A stretch of 64,000 bases of DNA from positions 91,116-155,115 of the forward strand of contig JAUHZK010000007.1 in the NCBI GenBank assembly GCA_030425645.1, in the 5' to 3' direction. Numbering within the stretch: the first letter of the stretch is position 1; each line of letters opens with the position of its first letter. Position numbers and translations under genes: made by a program. Of this stretch, positions 21,058-28,517 are shown piece after piece. Under the pieces are notes generated by a model. That model was not told where the DNA came from and did not search any database. It saw only the letters and a program-made list of their open reading frames with translations. The stretch comes from Gammaproteobacteria bacterium (GTDB taxonomy: Bacteria > Pseudomonadota > Gammaproteobacteria > JAPPPA01).

Positions 21058-21061
21058 GAAG

Positions 21062-21112
21062 ATGGTGGGTCGTGTAGGATTCGAACCTACGACCAATTGG
21101 TTAAAAGCCAAC
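21062..21112. repeat. att site: 51-bp direct repeat of the tRNA-Lys 3' part
   Basis: ATGGTGGGTCGTGTAGGATTCGAACCTACGACCAATTGGTTAAAAGCCAAC is identical to 28441-28491. Confidence 0.95.
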
Positions 21113-21666: not shown

Positions 21667-22719
21667 CTACCTGAATATCGCATCATACTTACGCAAAGTC
21701 CTATCGTCCCGAATAAGCTCGTCAACAAAATCTTCATTGGAATAAATACCTGACAACATATCTCTTACACGAAGCGGCAAATCCACAGCCTCCTCCGCGA
21801 TGACAAACTGCAAATAAGCCTTGTTAGCTTCAAACCGTTCATTTGTCATATCAAAAATTACATAAGCCGAGAGTTTTTTAAGGTCTTCATAATTTTTAAG
21901 TGCCGTGTAACGCTTAACTTCCTCCTGATAATCCAACAGGCGTTTGATAGGTATGTATCCGCTTCCCTCATCAGCTAGGATCATGCGCTGACCATCGGGA
22001 CGAGGAAACTCATTTACACACTCCATTAGCCTCTGTTGGATACCTTTGTAGGAAGTATCGGTATAAGGCTGATTCATTTTGTTTCGTGGTTCTATTGGCT
22101 CGTCAGCGTGCGTATCAAAAAAGTCAGGGGCGGAATATTGCAAGTAAATCTTGTTGGACAGCTCACTACGTCTATTGGAAGTGTTTTTAGCATATTCAAG
22201 AGTAATCTCATCTCCCCGTTCGACCTTCATTAATATCTCTTGAGCCAACTTGTTGCTCTCGCTCACAAAGGCTTTCAACTCGCTAAAGATATAATCACTT
22301 TCGGCGCTTACCTCGACCCAACCATTCTCAAACTTATCAGCTAATAATTGAGATTCGCATGCCCCAAATTTAATCAAGTGTTTGTTGAAGTGAATATCTT
22401 TCTTGAGTTTCCGCAGTTTAATTTTGTTGGCCTCATTTATTGCGGTTTGCTTCTTTACAAGCGCATCAACAAGCTCCGATACGCCACTCATTTCACATTC
22501 GTACCTAACCTCAGCAAAGCCTTCACTTTCATTTAGAACGTCCCATTTAGTTGCGTCACAGCTTTGCCATGCATCGAACACCAAACCAATAGGTTTGATT
22601 CCGAAGCTGCTAATGCTCTGTTCTTTTAGATCCGTGATCCAATCTTTTTTTCCGCAGCCTGATATACCAACAACCAATAGACAACAAAGGAAAACCATCA
22701 ATTTTTTAAGGTCAAACAT
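21667..22719 (-). CDS. Hypothetical cargo lipoprotein
   Basis: Long ORF, GGAG RBS, KK + hydrophobic stretch + ISGC lipobox. Confidence 0.75.
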   Translation of the reverse strand: MFDLKKLMVFLCCLLVVGISGCGKKDWITDLKEQSISSFGIKPIGLVFDAWQSCDATKWDVLNESEGFAEVRYECEMSGVSELVDALVKKQTAINEANKIKLRKLKKDIHFNKHLIKFGACESQLLADKFENGWVEVSAESDYIFSELKAFVSESNKLAQEILMKVERGDEITLEYAKNTSNRRSELSNKIYLQYSAPDFFDTHADEPIEPRNKMNQPYTDTSYKGIQQRLMECVNEFPRPDGQRMILADEGSGYIPIKRLLDYQEEVKRYTALKNYEDLKKLSAYVIFDMTNERFEANKAYLQFVIAEEAVDLPLRVRDMLSGIYSNEDFVDELIRDDRTLRKYDAIFR

Positions 22720-23097: not shown

Positions 23098-23146
23098 CAC
23101 GTTATTAGCAAAACTAATTGAGTCGTCACGGTGAGCTTCATATCCT
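23098..23146 (+). promoter_or_regulatory. Repeated element promoter module, copy 1 (upstream of rep-like gene)
   Basis: CACGTTATTAGCAAAACTAATTGAGTC, with -35 TTGAGT 23118-23123, 17 bp spacer, -10 TATCCT 23141-23146. Confidence 0.75.
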
Positions 23147-23173
23147 GACCTTCTATGTAAGGAAAAAAAGGAA

Positions 23174-23611
23174 ATGAACCAATTTGATTTAATCGACAGA
23201 GAAACAGGCGAAGTCTTAGATGCAAAACACATTGTTGCGCCTAAGAAGATACCTTCAGCCTTCCACGAAGGCTTCAATATGATTGGCCTATTCGGCTGTG
23301 AATACCTGACTAAATTAGGTGCTGAAGGAAAACTCACGCTGACCGATTTCGTAGTCTTGTGTAAGTTACTCACGGATAACAACTACGAGAACAGCCAAGG
23401 CTTAAACATAGCTAAGCTGGCAAGAGACATTGGGAAAGACCGATCTCAAGTCAGCAAAGCAATCAAGCATTTGCAAAGCCACGATTTATTCATTCGACAA
23501 AAAGATAAAGACGGCCTGCCTGAGTTGCTCTTCAACCCCAACTACTTTTGGCGTGGCAGGCCAGCGCTCCATAAGCAAGCTATTCGCCACTACAAAAAAG
23601 ACAAGTCTTAA
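23174..23611 (+). CDS. RepL-like winged-helix replication/maintenance protein
   Basis: IDRETGEV N-terminal motif, HTH IAKLARDIGKDRSQVSKAIKHL, FNPNYFWRG C-terminal motif. Confidence 0.6.
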   Translation: MNQFDLIDRETGEVLDAKHIVAPKKIPSAFHEGFNMIGLFGCEYLTKLGAEGKLTLTDFVVLCKLLTDNNYENSQGLNIAKLARDIGKDRSQVSKAIKHLQSHDLFIRQKDKDGLPELLFNPNYFWRGRPALHKQAIRHYKKDKS

Positions 23612-25356
23612 AGCCCTAAGTCACGGCTATTATCTTGCTCTCTACGCTTCAACTCACGATACAGCTTGTTACTGATTGTCATTTTCGGTTTGGGTTGCGG
23701 TGCTTCTTTATCAGCAACCATTTTTTTCACCAAACCTAATGCCTTTTCACAGCAAAGAGCCGACAGGTGCAATATCTTGGTCAGGAAGTTGCCGTAATGC
23801 CTAAAGCCGGACAAGTGGTAACCCTGTTGTATTTCTCCGCCTATGTGATTGGCAAAATTTTCCGCAAAATCATTCAGCGATTCTTGGCTTAGTTCTAAGC
23901 CATAAAGCGGAACACTAAACACCACCTCAAAATCATTTGTGGCTAGTTGTTGAGTCAGACTAGGCATATAGCCTTGCGCTTCCAGTTTGTCGATTTGGCG
24001 TTGCGACAAATCACCAATGCAAAACTGAAAATAGCCCTCGCGGCGCGGGGCAATCTGCAAGACATAACCCTTGCTCGACAACTGCATTAAGCCAGCCATT
24101 TTGTCGCTGAGTTGCTCCTCTGAATAAACATGACGCTTAGGTGCTTGGTAGTTGTTTGGGTTTGAGATTATTAGCTCGTATTTATCAGCCTGAATAGCGT
24201 CGAACTGCTTTTGCAGTTCCTTCATTTTGTATTGATAACTCATGCTGCTTACAACGCCTCCTTGATTGGAGAGAAGCTCATCAAGAGCACGCCAGCGACG
24301 ATACCCAGCACGAAGGCTGAGGTTATGGTCCACAGCGTGCTTCTCAAAGTCGCCAGCTCGTGCTTCTGCATTATCTGAAGCTGGAGCTTCCTGTTGCGGT
24401 CCAGGGTTTTGCTGAACTTCTGGTATTGCTTGGTTAGACTTTGGCTCGCCTGAGTGCTCTGCTTTGTAACCCGTGTCATTTGCTCGTTGATGTTCAACAA
24501 GGTTTGTTGCAGAACTTTCTGAGTTTCTGCTTCTGTTCTGACTAAGTGCTTTTTTGATTTGGTTTGTGCAGCGGATAAGTTCTCCGCTTTCTGTGGCTTG
24601 TTCATAGCTAACTCCTTTTTCTAATAATTGTTTTAAGCTGTAGCCTTTCCCTAGTTGGGAACCCTTGAACGTAATGCCTTCCAGTTGAAAGGCCATTCCG
24701 TTGAGTCGTCCGGTGCTTGCCACATTAGGTATGGCAATCACTCCTGACGCTTTTAATCGCTCTATAAAAGCGAAAACTGATTGAGGCTCATTCAATGCCT
24801 CGTCTATGAGCTGTTGTAGCTGTTGGCGGATTGGGGCGCGCCCTTCACGCAACGCTTTTTCCATCTCGTTTTTAGTTGCTTGTTTCTTGTCGCGTTGGGC
24901 TTCTTCAAACGTCTTTGTAATCGTCAAACCGAACTGCTTTTCTAAATCGCTAGCGACGCGCATGGCAGAAAAGTATTCCCAGCGCCCATTCCATAACTGC
25001 CCGTTTAAACCGATACGGCTGGCAACGATGTGAATATGTTGTCCGTTGGTGTCGCTATGCGATACGGCAACCCATTGGTGAGCGTCGCTAAACCCCATGC
25101 GCTCCACATAGGCATTGGCCACCTCGGAAAACTTCTCTGCTGGGATGGTTTCGTTATCGGGCAGTCTTAGCCACGAGTGGCTGACTGGCTTAATGATTGA
25201 AGGGCGTTTATTTCGGCTAATGCCGAACTCTGCCGATAACTGTAGCGGGTTAGTGCCTGACATATTCCCAGCGACGATTTCAGCACCCTTGCTGTCGCCG
25301 AATACATACGACAGCGCACCGTAAAAACCGTTGCCTCTTATTGCTCCGGCTTTCAT
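23608..25356 (-). CDS. Relaxase (MOBP-like mobilisation nuclease) with C-terminal RepB'-primase-like domain
   Basis: GNGFYGALSY (catalytic Tyr region), PVSHSWLRL, HSDTNGQHIHIVASRI HUH motif, FKGSQLGKGYS. ATGA overlap with mobC. Confidence 0.88.
   Translation of the reverse strand: MKAGAIRGNGFYGALSYVFGDSKGAEIVAGNMSGTNPLQLSAEFGISRNKRPSIIKPVSHSWLRLPDNETIPAEKFSEVANAYVERMGFSDAHQWVAVSHSDTNGQHIHIVASRIGLNGQLWNGRWEYFSAMRVASDLEKQFGLTITKTFEEAQRDKKQATKNEMEKALREGRAPIRQQLQQLIDEALNEPQSVFAFIERLKASGVIAIPNVASTGRLNGMAFQLEGITFKGSQLGKGYSLKQLLEKGVSYEQATESGELIRCTNQIKKALSQNRSRNSESSATNLVEHQRANDTGYKAEHSGEPKSNQAIPEVQQNPGPQQEAPASDNAEARAGDFEKHAVDHNLSLRAGYRRWRALDELLSNQGGVVSSMSYQYKMKELQKQFDAIQADKYELIISNPNNYQAPKRHVYSEEQLSDKMAGLMQLSSKGYVLQIAPRREGYFQFCIGDLSQRQIDKLEAQGYMPSLTQQLATNDFEVVFSVPLYGLELSQESLNDFAENFANHIGGEIQQGYHLSGFRHYGNFLTKILHLSALCCEKALGLVKKMVADKEAPQPKPKMTISNKLYRELKRREQDNSRDLGL
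24249..24605 (-). CDS. MobB-like accessory protein nested out-of-frame inside the relaxase gene
   Basis: Strong AAGGAG RBS before ATG 24605, coiled coil plus one C-terminal TM helix. Same layout as nested mobB/mbeB genes. Confidence 0.65.
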   Translation of the reverse strand: MNKPQKAENLSAAQTKSKKHLVRTEAETQKVLQQTLLNINEQMTRVTKQSTQASQSLTKQYQKFSKTLDRNRKLQLQIMQKHELATLRSTLWTITSAFVLGIVAGVLLMSFSPIKEAL

Positions 25357-25691
25357 TGCGCTTTCACCCCGATTAAAGCGTTGCGGGTATCGGCTAAGAC
25401 GTTTTGCGTCCGCTCAACATCTTCGATTACGCCAGCAATGTTGGCGCGGCGCGCCAACTGATTAAGCAAGCCTGACAGCTTATTGAGCTGGGACCATGCT
25501 TTGAAATTAACAGGTGGGATATGTTGCACTTGGGCGGTAAACGCCAAGGTGCGCAAGTATTCGCCACGGGCAGCATGCCCGCGTAAATCGTCGAGTTGAT
25601 TTAGTTCTAAATCCGTTAGTCGGCACCCTATGCGGTGCGACCTTTTAAGGTCTGCGGGCAGTCTTTTTCTGCCTCTTCTTCTGTGCTCCAT
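25353..25691 (-). CDS. mobC: MobC-like ribbon-helix-helix relaxosome accessory protein
   Basis: RGRKRLP..LKRSHRIGCRLTD.E, RGEYLR, LNKLSGLLNQLARRAN. Directly upstream of the relaxase. Start ATG 25691. Confidence 0.8.
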   Translation of the reverse strand: MEHRRRGRKRLPADLKRSHRIGCRLTDLELNQLDDLRGHAARGEYLRTLAFTAQVQHIPPVNFKAWSQLNKLSGLLNQLARRANIAGVIEDVERTQNVLADTRNALIGVKAQ

Positions 25692-25724
25692 GTTTGTTGT
25701 TCTTCTAATGTCTTGCCGTCGTAA

Positions 25725-25800
25725 GCAAAGCGCCACAAGGGCACCCGTTAACGGGCAAGCAAGGATATTTGGCCAGCCAAATTACTCCTTGCTACTTCTC
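25725..25800. other. Candidate oriT
   Basis: Palindrome CCCGTTAACGGG (25744-25755) and nested IR AGCAAGGA/ATTTGGC..GCCAAAT/TCCTTGCT (25758-25793), upstream of mobC. Confidence 0.4.
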
Positions 25801-25839
25801 ACAGTAAACTATTTTACGATCTATATCAATAACTTATAT

Positions 25840-25886
25840 CGTTATTAGTAAAACTAATTGAGTCAAGCAGGAGAGATCCATAAGCT
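25840..25886 (+). promoter_or_regulatory. Repeated element promoter module, copy 2
   Basis: CGTTATTAGTAAAACTAATTGAGTCA, with -35 TTGAGT 25858-25863, 17 bp spacer, -10 TAAGCT 25881-25886. Confidence 0.75.
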
Positions 25887-25915
25887 GAAATAGTCAATTC
25901 AATAAGGAGTTATAT

Positions 25916-26305
25916 ATGACAAGAAGAAAATTAGTAAGTAGCCACAGCCCGCGCGAATACCTCACCAAGTGCAATAAAGCCATCAACATATATTGGGATT
26001 TCTACACCGTGCTAGACAAACCAGAAAAAAGAGGTTTTGTAGTCACAAATTTCACTTTAAACAATAGGTTCTTATGCTTTAAACCCGAGTTCCCTACAAG
26101 GGGCCGTTTTAACACCACGGCATTCCCCGATGAATTGAGAAGGGAGCTCCAAGTGTTTTTTTATACGAAATGTGATTTCTCTAAGGAAAATTTTGAAAAA
26201 TTGGGGTTCATAATTGAGCTAGCAATTATGCTGATTAAGCACAGTAAGCACTTCGAGAATCATTGCATGAGCTTTTATGAAATGGCTGTAAGAACCGGGT
26301 CATAA
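25916..26305 (+). CDS. Hypothetical protein
   Basis: Strong TAAGGAG RBS, located right behind promoter module copy 2. Confidence 0.65.
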   Translation: MTRRKLVSSHSPREYLTKCNKAINIYWDFYTVLDKPEKRGFVVTNFTLNNRFLCFKPEFPTRGRFNTTAFPDELRRELQVFFYTKCDFSKENFEKLGFIIELAIMLIKHSKHFENHCMSFYEMAVRTGS

Positions 26306-26367
26306 CCCTTTTAATTTTAACTTTGGTCACAGCCAGAACAGTATATGACGCAGTCACCCATAGGCCT

Positions 26368-26904
26368 TTATAAAACACTCTCTATCTCTGAGCTTATGTG
26401 TCTGGCCTGTGTGACTTGCTTCCGCCTCATTTCGTCAGAGGCTTTCAAAATATCCCATAGCTCGGTGCGCTTTGTTCCACCGTCGCTATCATTCTCTGCC
26501 TTGCCAAGGCCCGCTATTTGGCTGTGTAGACGAGCAACTTGTCTTTCTAAACGCTCGTTGTCAGAAGTCAAAAATTGAAGCCTTGCAGTCATAGCATTAA
26601 GGCGGTTGGCTTCTTGTGTTTGTTTCATTTGCAACCATAGTGCCTTGGCTTGCTCGGCGTTTGCGTCGGTGCTGGCCTTTAGCTCTCGTCCCTGTAGCAA
26701 GATAGCAATAAGCCCAAGCGTAATTGCCATTGTGGTGAAAATTCCGTCAGTGATCGCTAAGGCATCACCCAGCCCCGCTAAAGTTGTGGGTAGCTCCATA
26801 CCCTCCAAAAACGTTGGCAGCGGAGCTAATCCCGTCGCCACCAAAAGTACTGCTCCCCAAGTCGAAAGAACTAGCGCTACTAGCAGTGCAACATTCGCAT
26901 TCAT
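26368..26904 (-). CDS. Hypothetical membrane protein (two TM helices + coiled coil)
   Basis: Two hydrophobic segments (..GLGDALAITDGIF..LIAILLQGREL) followed by a heptad-rich region. Start moved to ATG 26904. Confidence 0.7.
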   Translation of the reverse strand: MNANVALLVALVLSTWGAVLLVATGLAPLPTFLEGMELPTTLAGLGDALAITDGIFTTMAITLGLIAILLQGRELKASTDANAEQAKALWLQMKQTQEANRLNAMTARLQFLTSDNERLERQVARLHSQIAGLGKAENDSDGGTKRTELWDILKASDEMRRKQVTQARHISSEIESVL

Positions 26905-26959
26905 ATTGATTACCTGTGCTTTTTGACAATTATTTTTAACCAACGCATAAGGCCTAACC

Positions 26960-27008
26960 CACGTTATTAGTAAAACTAATTGAGTCACTATTGCACGCTC
27001 AATAGTAT
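26960..27008 (+). promoter_or_regulatory. Repeated element promoter module, copy 3 (upstream of sORF-xis-int)
   Basis: CACGTTATTAGTAAAACTAATTGAGTCA, with -35 TTGAGT 26980-26985, 17 bp spacer, -10 TAGTAT 27003-27008. Confidence 0.75.
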
Positions 27009-27032
27009 GGGCGCCTCTAATAAGGAAGAGGC

Positions 27033-27131
27033 ATGAACCAATACGAAAAAACTATATATAACAGGCGAGTAGAGTGGCGCCAAGCGCACGTAAAAAATAC
27101 AGACTCAAGTGAAACCGGAGGTGACTCATGA
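27033..27131 (+). CDS. 32-aa small ORF coupled to the xis-like gene (not in ORF track)
   Basis: TAAGGAAGAGG RBS. MNQYEKTIYNRRVEWRQAHVKNTDSSETGGDS*, with an ATGA stop/start overlap at 27128-27131. Confidence 0.5.
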   Translation: MNQYEKTIYNRRVEWRQAHVKNTDSSETGGDS

Positions 27132-27352
27132 AACCTTCTGATCAACTTGGATCAACATATTCACGATTTTTATCGAAGCAGGAGCTAATAGATTTAACAG
27201 GCAAGAGGGCTGCTTCAGCCCAACGCCGTGCGTTAGATTTTATGAAACTGCCCTACATAAGGAGACCCGACGGCACACCAGTTGTCACGTCTGGAATCTT
27301 TGAAAGCAGAGGCAATAGGAAAAACTCACCTAACTGGGAGAGCTTGTCATGA
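27128..27352 (+). CDS. DUF4224-like protein, probable excisionase/RDF
   Basis: FLSKQELIDLTG....AQRRAL.......RPDGTPVV...PNW pattern. ATGA overlap with the integrase. Confidence 0.75.
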   Translation: MKPSDQLGSTYSRFLSKQELIDLTGKRAASAQRRALDFMKLPYIRRPDGTPVVTSGIFESRGNRKNSPNWESLS

Positions 27353-28374
27353 AATCATTTGCGCAAGGAGTCCGCTGGAAGTGCGGCGCATATCGTTATC
27401 GCGTACCCCGCTGGGTAGAGCAAAGCACCGTGGATAGCGTATTCAACGGGAAAAGAGAATATAAATTAGGTAAAACCCAATATGAAGCGGCGGTCGAGTA
27501 TGCCCGCGTTATGCGTGAGCTTGAGGGACCAATTAGTACCATAGTAACCATGGGCGACTTAATGACCCGTTATAGGTCGGAAGTCGTCCCTCTGAAGCAC
27601 CCCAAGACTCAAACAAGCAATATCATTAGCTTAAACAGGCTTTACAGTGTTTTTGCCAATATTCAACCAATTAACTTTGAGACCACTTTTGTCTTCCAAT
27701 ACCGAGACAAGCTAAAGGACACACGAACTAGCGCCAACAGAGACTTAGAAGTTTTAAGCCATCTTTTTAGCAAAGCGATTGAGTGGGGGGTTATAAAAAA
27801 CGAAGCACACCCAATGAGGGGATTGAACTATAAATATAGCAATCCCCCACGAGACAGGTACGTGAGCGACACAGAAGTCGAAGAAGCCCTTAAGGTGGCT
27901 TCTCCATTCCTATACGCCTATATCCAGCTCAAGCTCTCTCTGGGGTTGCGCAAAGGCGACATGCTACGCATTAAGCTCTCTGATTTGACTCCCGAGGGCA
28001 TACAAGCGACCAATACTAAAACAGGCAAAAAAACTTTATATACGCTGACTCCAGAGAGAAAAACGGCATGGGACTTATGCCTTAAAGCTCGACCAAGGAG
28101 TCGCACTCACTTCAATCTTTTGTTCTGCACAAGAGACGGCAAACCCTATATTGACGAGCAAGGCACAACCTCTGGTTTCGATAGTGTATGGCAACGCTTT
28201 ATGAAAAAAGCTTTGGCAGAAACCAATCTAGAAGAAAGATTTACGGAACACGATCTAAGGGCAAAAGTTGCTAGCGACAGCAAAGACAGCGAACAAGCGC
28301 GCAAGCGTATGGGCCACACCAGCTCTGCCGTAACAGAACGCGTATATAGGAGAAAAGCTGAGAGAGCAGACTAA
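27349..28374 (+). CDS. int: Tyrosine recombinase/integrase
   Basis: ANRDLEVLSHLFSKAIEWG, GLRKGD (Arg), KTGK, HDLRAK, MGH, VY catalytic set. Adjacent to the att site. Confidence 0.93.
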   Translation: MKSFAQGVRWKCGAYRYRVPRWVEQSTVDSVFNGKREYKLGKTQYEAAVEYARVMRELEGPISTIVTMGDLMTRYRSEVVPLKHPKTQTSNIISLNRLYSVFANIQPINFETTFVFQYRDKLKDTRTSANRDLEVLSHLFSKAIEWGVIKNEAHPMRGLNYKYSNPPRDRYVSDTEVEEALKVASPFLYAYIQLKLSLGLRKGDMLRIKLSDLTPEGIQATNTKTGKKTLYTLTPERKTAWDLCLKARPRSRTHFNLLFCTRDGKPYIDEQGTTSGFDSVWQRFMKKALAETNLEERFTEHDLRAKVASDSKDSEQARKRMGHTSSAVTERVYRRKAERAD

Positions 28375-28411: not shown

Positions 28412-28441
28412 CCGGCCCGAAGGCCGGAAACCCTTATAAAA

Positions 28442-28517
28442 TGGTGGGTCGTGTAGGATTCGAACCTACGACCAATTGGTTAAAAGCCAACTGCTCTACC
28501 AACTGAGCTAACGACCC
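28442..28517 (-). tRNA. tRNA-Lys (anticodon UUU)
   Basis: Reverse complement GGGTCGTTAGCTCAGTTGGTAGAGCAGTTGGCTTTTAACCAATTGGTCGTAGGTTCGAATCCTACACGACCCACCA, 76 nt with encoded CCA. Confidence 0.98.

Follow-up and report, generated by a model that had tools for sequence, protein, structure and literature searches.

A 25-nt sequence, CGTTATTAGYAAAACTAATTGAGTC, in which a palindrome runs into the −35 hexamer of a promoter, occurs exactly three times, on the + strand only, in the 64,000-nt stretch of DNA analysed here (the window; positions 91,116 to 155,115 of the forward strand of contig JAUHZK010000007.1, from a Gammaproteobacteria bacterium). All three occurrences, boxes 1 to 3, lie within a 7,379-bp island with tRNA-Lys(UUU) as its integration site. 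This island is an integrative mobilizable element (IME), having its own relaxase and a putative origin of transfer (oriT), with no mating apparatus. At issue is what reads the boxes. The reading favoured, to which about an even chance is given, is that a 145-aa winged-helix protein encoded behind box 1, and related to the RepL-type proteins of very small plasmids, would bind the box, regulate its own gene and co-regulate the excisionase-integrase (xis-int) operon together with a cargo gene. The island is laid out as follows (window coordinates).

21059-21112, no strand: attL, a 54-nt direct repeat copying the 3′ part of tRNA-Lys, 98% identical to 28438-28491

21667-22719, − strand: 350-aa cargo open reading frame (ORF) with a lipoprotein-like N-terminal signal (lipobox read by eye) and 0 family matches

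23100-23124, + strand: box 1 (pattern search), palindrome ATTAGC-AAA-ACTAAT (23104-23118), −35 TTGAGT (23118-23123), −10 TATCCT (23141-23146)

23174-23611, + strand: winged-helix protein of 145 aa, related to RepL, predicted to homodimerise and proposed to read the box (homology, model)

23608-25356, − strand: 582-aa relaxase with a MobA/VirD2 nuclease domain (PF03432, E 3.9e-22)

24249-24605, − strand: 118-aa ORF, out of frame inside the relaxase gene, with a hydrophobic end and mobB-like by position only

25353-25736, − strand: NikA-like relaxosome accessory protein (PF21983, 26.4 bits, slightly short of the cut-off, 27); translation may really begin at the ATG at 25691

25737-25839, no strand: probable oriT region with inverted repeats CCCGTTAACGGG (25744), ATTTGGCCAGCCAAAT (25767) and GTAAACTATTTTAC (25804)

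25840-25864, + strand: box 2 (pattern search), perfect palindrome, −35 25858-25863, −10 TAAGCT (25881-25886)

25916-26305, + strand: 129-aa orphan gene behind box 2

26368-26904, − strand: 178-aa membrane and coiled-coil protein, convergent, 50% identical to a protein of a second IME (protein comparison)

26962-26986, + strand: box 3 (pattern search), perfect palindrome, −35 26980-26985, −10 TAGTAT (27003-27008)

26987-27006, + strand: second perfect palindrome, ACTATTG-N6-CAATAGT, in the xis-int promoter spacer and overlapping the −10, the only copy in the 2.75-Mb genome

27033-27131, + strand: 32-codon leader ORF with an ATGA overlap with the xis start

27128-27352, + strand: 74-aa excisionase (DUF4224; PF13986, E 1.6e-11; PHROG excisionase, E 1.3e-9)

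27349-28374, + strand: 341-aa tyrosine integrase (PF00589, E 1.4e-10), its start overlapping the xis stop

28438-28491, no strand: attR, within the intact tRNA-Lys(UUU) gene at 28442-28517, − strand

Flanking repeats, one of them in a tRNA gene, an adjacent tyrosine integrase and an atypical composition (GC 41-48% within, 52-55% outside) mark the island as an IME, and none of its ORFs is a type IV secretion system gene. The assignment of oriT is due to its position upstream of the relaxase operon.

Three modules of palindrome, −35 and −10 at 23100, 25840 and 26962, the first with one mismatch, were described in an initial annotation made from the letters of the window, and they stand. None of 100 dinucleotide-preserving shuffles contains a match to the 25-nt box, even with 3 mismatches allowed, and the window is without any further match within 3 mismatches. 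The palindrome core is perfect in copies 2 and 3 (ATTAGT-AAA-ACTAAT); copy 1 has ATTAGC, so that the arms of box 1 are only 5 bp (ATTAG-N5-CTAAT). In each copy palindrome and −35 (TTGAGT) overlap by one T, the last of the former and the first of the latter, and a −10 of the form TAnnnT follows at exactly 17-nt spacing, across spacers whose sequences are unrelated. As TAnnnT occurs in the island at a frequency of 0.0135 per position, the probability of its presence in all three at a fixed offset is ~2.4e-6. In sigma-70 matching the box promoters score 7-8/12, below the threshold of a stricter scan (at least 9/12), in which they are hence unlisted. Translation starts with Shine-Dalgarno sequences are present at 23174, 25916 and 27033, 47-52 nt past the box end, and the genes they open are, as the initial annotation had it, the rep-like gene, the 129-aa gene and the operon of the small leader ORF, xis and int. 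With the usual −10-to-start distance assumed, the palindrome centre is at approximately −42 from the predicted transcription starts; relative to the ATG of the 145-aa gene, box 1 is at −70. The modules are real, non-random and promoter-shaped.

The specificity extends to the host genome (2.75 Mb), in which the 22-nt core has 4 matches at up to 3 mismatches, all inside two IMEs; a reversed-pattern control on the whole genome gave 0 matches. The looser ATTAG-N5-CTAAT is found at 6 sites, 4 in the two IMEs, 1 within a gene and 1 upstream of a PhoD gene. A host regulon based on the two extra sites was considered and set aside as chance, one being intragenic and the other Pho-box-like. This last, ATTAGTCATGCTAAT at C10:54755, upstream of a PhoD-like phosphatase gene, has the look of a Pho box, and its agreement with the palindrome pattern is fortuitous. 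The motif ATTAGTAAAACTAAT has no match in the running text of the literature searched.

The modules were initially held to have no obvious cognate regulator. This was wrong, as the island's own 145-aa winged-helix protein is a candidate. Box 1 is the sole inverted repeat in the last 120 nt before the start codon of its gene. The AlphaFold2 model of the protein has a predicted local-distance difference test score (pLDDT) of 92.7, and the nearest solved folds are those of MarR/SlyA-type dimeric regulators (best E 7.7e-4, template-modelling score 0.40). Prediction as a homodimer gives a score of 0.86, the best control being 0.00. The mark applied was reached by 20/30 proteins whose solved structure is a pair of one chain and by 1/23 whose structure is a single chain. 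These counts are only rough for the present case, in which an alignment made for this analysis served as input, and resemblance to MarR dimers of solved structure may contribute to a pass. Three homodimer runs show at least 92% contact agreement, with a partner pLDDT of at least 85, and the predicted symmetric interface, residues 3-69 with 122-137, leaves free the helix 90-102 that carries the recognition-helix stretch DRSQVSKAIK. That stretch is unchanged in the three closest relatives while other parts vary. Close relatives are few, 3 (74-90% identity) among 5.8 billion clustered proteins, each lacking DNA context, and the family is small (93 representatives at E ≤ 1e-3 in a set of 1.84 billion). 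Of 400 further genomes sampled in the class, one has the protein. Separately, a 1,737-aa protein, P0004, contains 12 stretches resembling residues 13-50 of the 145-aa protein (E 8e-18).

More distant relatives on plasmids are informative about what proteins of this kind have ahead of their genes. A tblastn search with the 145-aa protein against plasmids yields 81 records at 26-33% identity (E down to 1e-8), 80 of which cover at least 80% of the query. Some are named RepL by NCBI, and many are the sole or nearly sole gene on plasmids of 1.0-2.3 kb, including ones of 1,306, 1,459 and 1,526 bp; one plasmid of 2,043 bp encodes only mobV and such a relative. Because of this near solitude on tiny plasmids the family is, by elimination, taken to be one of plasmid replication initiators. 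A deliberately diverse, non-random set of twelve relatives was compared: 11 genes on 10 of the 81 plasmid records and one on a genome contig, G379. A palindrome with arms of at least 6 bp is present upstream of the own gene in 11 of the 12, and in 10 of those 11 it lies between the −35 (TTGACA or TTGACG) and the ribosome-binding site; on the G379 contig it occurs as three copies farther upstream. Two or three tandem copies are the arrangement in 10 relatives, one copy being imperfect in one Arsenophonus paralogue, and the gene for Bacillus RepL shows no own-promoter palindrome at the 6-bp arm threshold.

The palindromes themselves vary: several are GTTATC-N6-GATAAC, and GTTGACAATAATGTCAAC and AGTTATGTTCAGGCATAACT are among the rest. 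On an Arsenophonus phage-plasmid, two paralogues have different palindromes of their own, GTTACCATTATTGGTAAC and GTTGGTAAATATACCAAC, and a palindrome that differs between paralogues on a single plasmid behaves as a cognate operator would. Conversely, relatives only 23-40% identical can share GTTATC-N6-GATAAC. Autoregulation by the RepL-like winged-helix protein, which the initial annotation kept as its alternative, thus gains both comparative support (the 11 of 12 relatives) and structural support (the predicted homodimer). Beside this, a AGATACAGAAGGG-like motif is kept ~60-100 nt upstream of the rep start, ahead of a TTGAC(A/G)-ATAG promoter, on plasmids with these relatives (L033, L034, L039, L041-L044, L047, L048). 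It may be part of their origin; in the window AGATACAGAAGGG has no occurrence beyond chance. The plasmid protein accession WP_004193480 had no match in the literature searched.

The fourth match in the genome is in a second IME of ~6 kb and low GC (C11 ~94771-100753, or L005 5772-11754), flanked by a 12-nt repeat, TTTTGGGGCACC, and encoding a 426-aa integrase, a MobA/MobL relaxase, a RepL-family protein, a membrane/coiled-coil homologue and an 84-aa orphan. Box 4, TTATTAGTAATGCTAATTGAGT at C11:99153-99174 on the − strand, matches at 20/22 positions, both mismatches being in the spacer of the palindrome, and its promoter consists of a −35 TTGAGT, a 16-nt spacer and a −10 TATGAT. The second IME's 172-aa protein passes the Pfam RepL model PF05732 (24.1 bits, with a cut-off of 20.3). 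The RepL-type protein and the membrane/coiled-coil protein are the only ones common to the two IMEs, which differ in integrase and in relaxase family and have no shared DNA word longer than 14 nt. Likeness between the islands at the DNA level is consequently confined to the box, and recent recombination between them as the origin of box 4 was rejected on the same count. The sequence ATTAGT-N5-ACTAA upstream of the second IME's rep gene was not counted, its spacing being other and ~6 chance matches being expected by our own estimate. A perfect 18-bp palindrome, TTGCTCGCTAGCGAGCAA, is also upstream of that gene.

Related copies of the first island exist elsewhere. Parts of it are present in 12 runs from 8 studies, two of which runs may be its source and none of which is recorded as RNA, and contigs of four runs, at a likeness of at least 80%, are diverged copies. 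A contig from one of these runs, X11, follows box 2 as far as 25883, inside the −10, from where 671 other letters replace 25884-26431; the gene behind box 2 is therefore exchangeable, and the box 2 promoter looks like a docking point for exchangeable cargo. Another X11 contig lacks 23021-23099, and its match to the island picks up again precisely where box 1 starts.

Put together, the mechanism favoured would be one in which the 145-aa RepL-related protein reads the palindrome as a symmetric homodimer at three targets, namely box 1 at its own gene, box 2 at the swappable cargo gene beside the probable oriT, and box 3 at the leader-xis-int operon, so that a single element-encoded factor would set replication-type functions, recombination and cargo expression. 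Binding of the box by the protein is what we infer from the combination of operator position, relatives and predicted dimer, and the support includes the failure of the collections scanned to yield any external element with the box. The protein may have retained replication initiation. As for the sign of regulation, repression is preferred to activation by a modest margin within the favoured reading, because the −35 and its spacing are fairly good and a footprint of MarR size overlapping the first −35 base would presumably cover the hexamer. The resident state would then be one of negative feedback by the 145-aa repressor. Relaxase operons are generally transferred last. If that of the island enters last, the probable oriT would have boxes 2 and 3 on its leading side, with the regulator gene arriving late, and the consequence would be a burst of cargo gene and xis-int expression in the naive cell before the repressor builds up. 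With the alternative sign, positive autoregulation from −42 might form an on/off switch for excision and replication.

Several points weigh against the 145-aa protein as reader, or against its being a simple repressor. Its own family assignment is borderline, as it is below the Pfam cut-offs for both HTH_36 (23.7, with 25 needed) and MarR (22.7, with 24.6 needed). The box departs from those of the family in being single rather than tandem, 15 bp rather than 18-20 bp, and upstream rather than downstream of the −35. In those relatives whose records were scanned in full the palindrome is only at the rep gene, and a regulon of three promoters is without precedent within the family on those scans. 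Box 4 is behind the second IME's RepL gene and its terminator, where it fronts the 84-aa orphan ORF. The 172-aa RepL protein is only 21-28% identical to the 145-aa protein (BLAST 28%, E 5e-8), and the box is near-identical nonetheless; here the sharing of one palindrome by plasmid relatives at 23-40% identity suggests that divergence of the two islands' proteins need be no bar to a common box. A centre at approximately −42 is where class II activators classically bind, though a site there may act in repression as well. Finally, an autorepressor alone gives no inducing signal for excision.

The fourth box cuts both ways, since a shared box is what a common trans factor would be expected to give, yet the int, relaxase and rep genes of the second island are unfronted by it. 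In place of element-specific autoregulation, the box might be a regulatory signal shared among mobile elements, whether through an unsequenced conjugative helper with a new family of activator and a new box, or through control of a gene of one IME by the RepL-type protein of the other, as cross-talk or parasitism. This is possible, though well short of probable.

Slightly less likely still is helper sensing as the initial annotation preferred it, in which an activator of a conjugative element or phage would bind the palindrome and switch on rep, xis-int and the cargo or accessory gene, in the manner of AcaCD and SetCD. Those two activators are supplied by the helpers of the Salmonella island SGI1 and of mobilizable genomic islands (MGIs), respectively IncC plasmids and SXT/R391-group ICEs (elements both integrative and conjugative). 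The geometry is suggestive, with a palindrome centred near −42 and abutting the −35 just where a class II activator would sit (AcaCD is reported as one; PMC4207636). The −10 hexamers are weak (3-4/6 consensus matches in the window's three boxes, 5/6 in box 4). Convergence on one trans factor would also give the pattern of a box common to two otherwise unrelated IMEs of one genome. Switching on rep only after excision makes biological sense, RepA expression with a chromosomal oriV being described as harmful in the case of SGI1 (PMC7826253). Against these considerations, the relaxase operon is without a box of its own, the second IME's box fronts only the 84-aa ORF and not int, mobA or rep, and the −35 TTGAGT with 17-nt spacing is fairly good. 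Promoters dependent on an activator usually lack a recognisable −35.

The search for a helper, which the initial annotation had proposed as a motif scan of this genome and of plasmid and phage collections, was run and disclosed no helper transfer (tra) regulon with the box. The scans used the exact pattern TTATTAGNAANNCTAATTGAGT (19 specified bases) and blastn with the 35-nt module, so a diverged box would be missed. The exact scan found 7 stretches in 185,579 species genomes (one per species), 8 in metagenome contigs and 2 in viral contigs. For the genome collection ~4 chance matches are estimated, and 7 is accordingly at chance level. Each of the 17 stretches has one match, none encodes a relative of the two islands' 19 proteins, and no record in the exact-pattern scans has multiple matches such as a tra regulon would give. 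With blastn, 72,556 plasmids gave 23 records (best E = 1) and 50,697 phages gave 78 (best E = 0.1), with matches mostly inside genes. The viral contigs hold no relative of the winged-helix protein or of the membrane protein. One phage-like contig was considered as a related element and rejected, as it has a 43%-identical integrase and no other shared gene. Nor does the host assembly (2.75 Mb, 16 contigs, 99.5% complete) contain a match for the conjugation ATPase and coupling-protein families CagE/TrbE/VirB4, TraG-D_C, T4SS-DNA_transf, TrwB or TraC_F_IV, with the qualification that a plasmid may be absent from the assembly. With its external matches single and at chance level, and with no conjugation ATPase or coupling protein in the host assembly, the helper-sensing switch is left unsupported.

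A different possibility, and an improbable one, is that the boxes are replication or copy-control sites, forming a dispersed origin or serving in handcuffing, and are bound by the RepL-type protein beyond or instead of any use as operators, with the promoter geometry secondary. The relatives are presumed initiators of 1-2-kb plasmids, whose palindromes may be operator and origin both, and the relaxase has a primase-like C-terminal part. The boxes are, on the other hand, unclustered, at distances of 2.7 and 1.1 kb, and they share strand, −35, a −10 at 17 nt and then a gene with a ribosome-binding site, none of which an origin requires.

Equally doubtful is a reading of the box by a host regulator or by another protein of either island (the second-IME RepL, Xis or the leader peptide), for while both IMEs with the box are in one host, and the unique second palindrome (26987-27006) indicates that at least one further factor probably acts at the xis-int promoter, no host promoter has a box-like site within 3 mismatches, the box is absent from two other genomes of the host's family or order (88% and 75% complete; 3 genomes in total), and box 2 persists in a related element in which other sequence stands in place of the 129-aa gene. 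The usual targets of excisionases are direct repeats close to att sites.

Comparison with better-characterized elements helps to place the 145-aa protein and its proposed regulon. IMEs are very common, but detailed accounts of their regulation exist for only a few, chiefly SGI1 and the MGIs with their hijacked helper activator. The arrangement here is like that of the AcaCD and SetCD promoters of those islands in having a conserved box beside the −35 ahead of xis and rep of a small island, and in coupling a leader ORF to the gene that follows, for which SGI1 has a parallel in S004-repA (PMC4207636 and PMC7826253 for both likenesses). It is unlike them in that no helper regulon with the box was found in the collections scanned, and in that the island has its own relaxase and a winged-helix protein, a predicted dimer, whose family uses promoter palindromes. 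The string 'palindrom' is absent from the main text of PMC4207636.

The 145-aa protein is homologous (26-33% identity over at least 90% of length) to RepL-type or helix-turn-helix initiators found on cryptic plasmids of 1-4 kb in Enterobacterales, Bartonella and Arsenophonus, Col(MG828)-typed ones among them, and these too have a palindrome in the promoter region of the own gene. The differences are those between tandem 18-20-bp palindromes behind the −35 at the rep gene only, and a single 15-bp palindrome upstream of the −35 at three promoters of an integrated element that has xis and int. By mechanism, a precedent for autorepression by a Rep protein is pIGRK of the pHW126 family, for which experiments described in PMC6854812 show that homodimers of RepR/RepR′ bind both the origin and the operator of their own promoter, and repress that promoter. 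The pIGRK operator comprises direct repeats plus an 8-bp inverted repeat, and its origin four 20-bp iterons (PMC6854812). The backbone regulon of R388 is comparable in that several promoters of a mobile element are under element-encoded repressors; R388 is, in contrast, a large conjugative plasmid with several regulators, where the 7.4-kb island has one candidate regulator and three or four promoters. A RepL-type initiator and autoregulator appears to have been extended to a three-promoter regulon, xis-int included, in an integrated mobilizable element, with a copy of the cassette in a second island.

What is at stake is the regulation of a very small, fully bounded IME in which one cassette links a replication-type protein, recombination and swappable cargo, and which itself encodes a candidate regulator. 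Should the box be read by the RepL-type protein, an initiator and autoregulator of plasmids would have become master regulator over an integrated element, and the island would offer a compact model of how IMEs time their integration, excision and replication with no signal from a helper. If the RepL-type protein is not the reader, a box shared by two unrelated IMEs would point to a helper yet to be found, and, were such a shared helper real, to a system of helper hijack by IMEs outside the IncC/SXT world.

Other parts of the island have affinities of their own. The relaxase gene is convergent with that for the 145-aa protein, and the C-terminal part of its product can be aligned to a RepB-type primase of an IncQ-like plasmid. 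Among full-length plasmid matches the best, H74 (90% query coverage, 28.5% identity), is annotated as RepB family primase, IncQ-type MobB and mobilization protein. A primase-like relaxase C-terminal part together with a small nested out-of-frame ORF recalls IncQ (RSF1010-type) plasmids; set against this are the low identity just given, the NikA-like accessory gene upstream in the same operon, the integrated state and the lack of RepA/RepC-type genes. The nested 118-aa ORF has no significant family match. On related plasmids, genes in the position of the NikA-like neighbour are annotated MobC.

For the 129-aa orphan protein no family or relative was found, with plasmids also devoid of a match, and the 178-aa membrane/coiled-coil protein matches neither a family nor any plasmid. 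In both IMEs a membrane protein of this kind, its coiled coil long, is encoded beside the integrase region (in the second at L005 7102-7677), and a role in exclusion or defence would be a guess. The second palindrome, that in the xis-int spacer, resembles the operators of the plasmid relatives in length and in position behind the −35. Shortly downstream, in the predicted 5′ untranslated region, a hairpin, GCCTCT-N8-AGAGGC at 27013-27032, encloses the ribosome-binding site of the leader ORF; given this and the overlap of leader and xis, translational control of xis-int is possible. On a broader scale, the 16 tyrosine-recombinase family matches in the 2.75-Mb genome imply that integrative elements in it are many.

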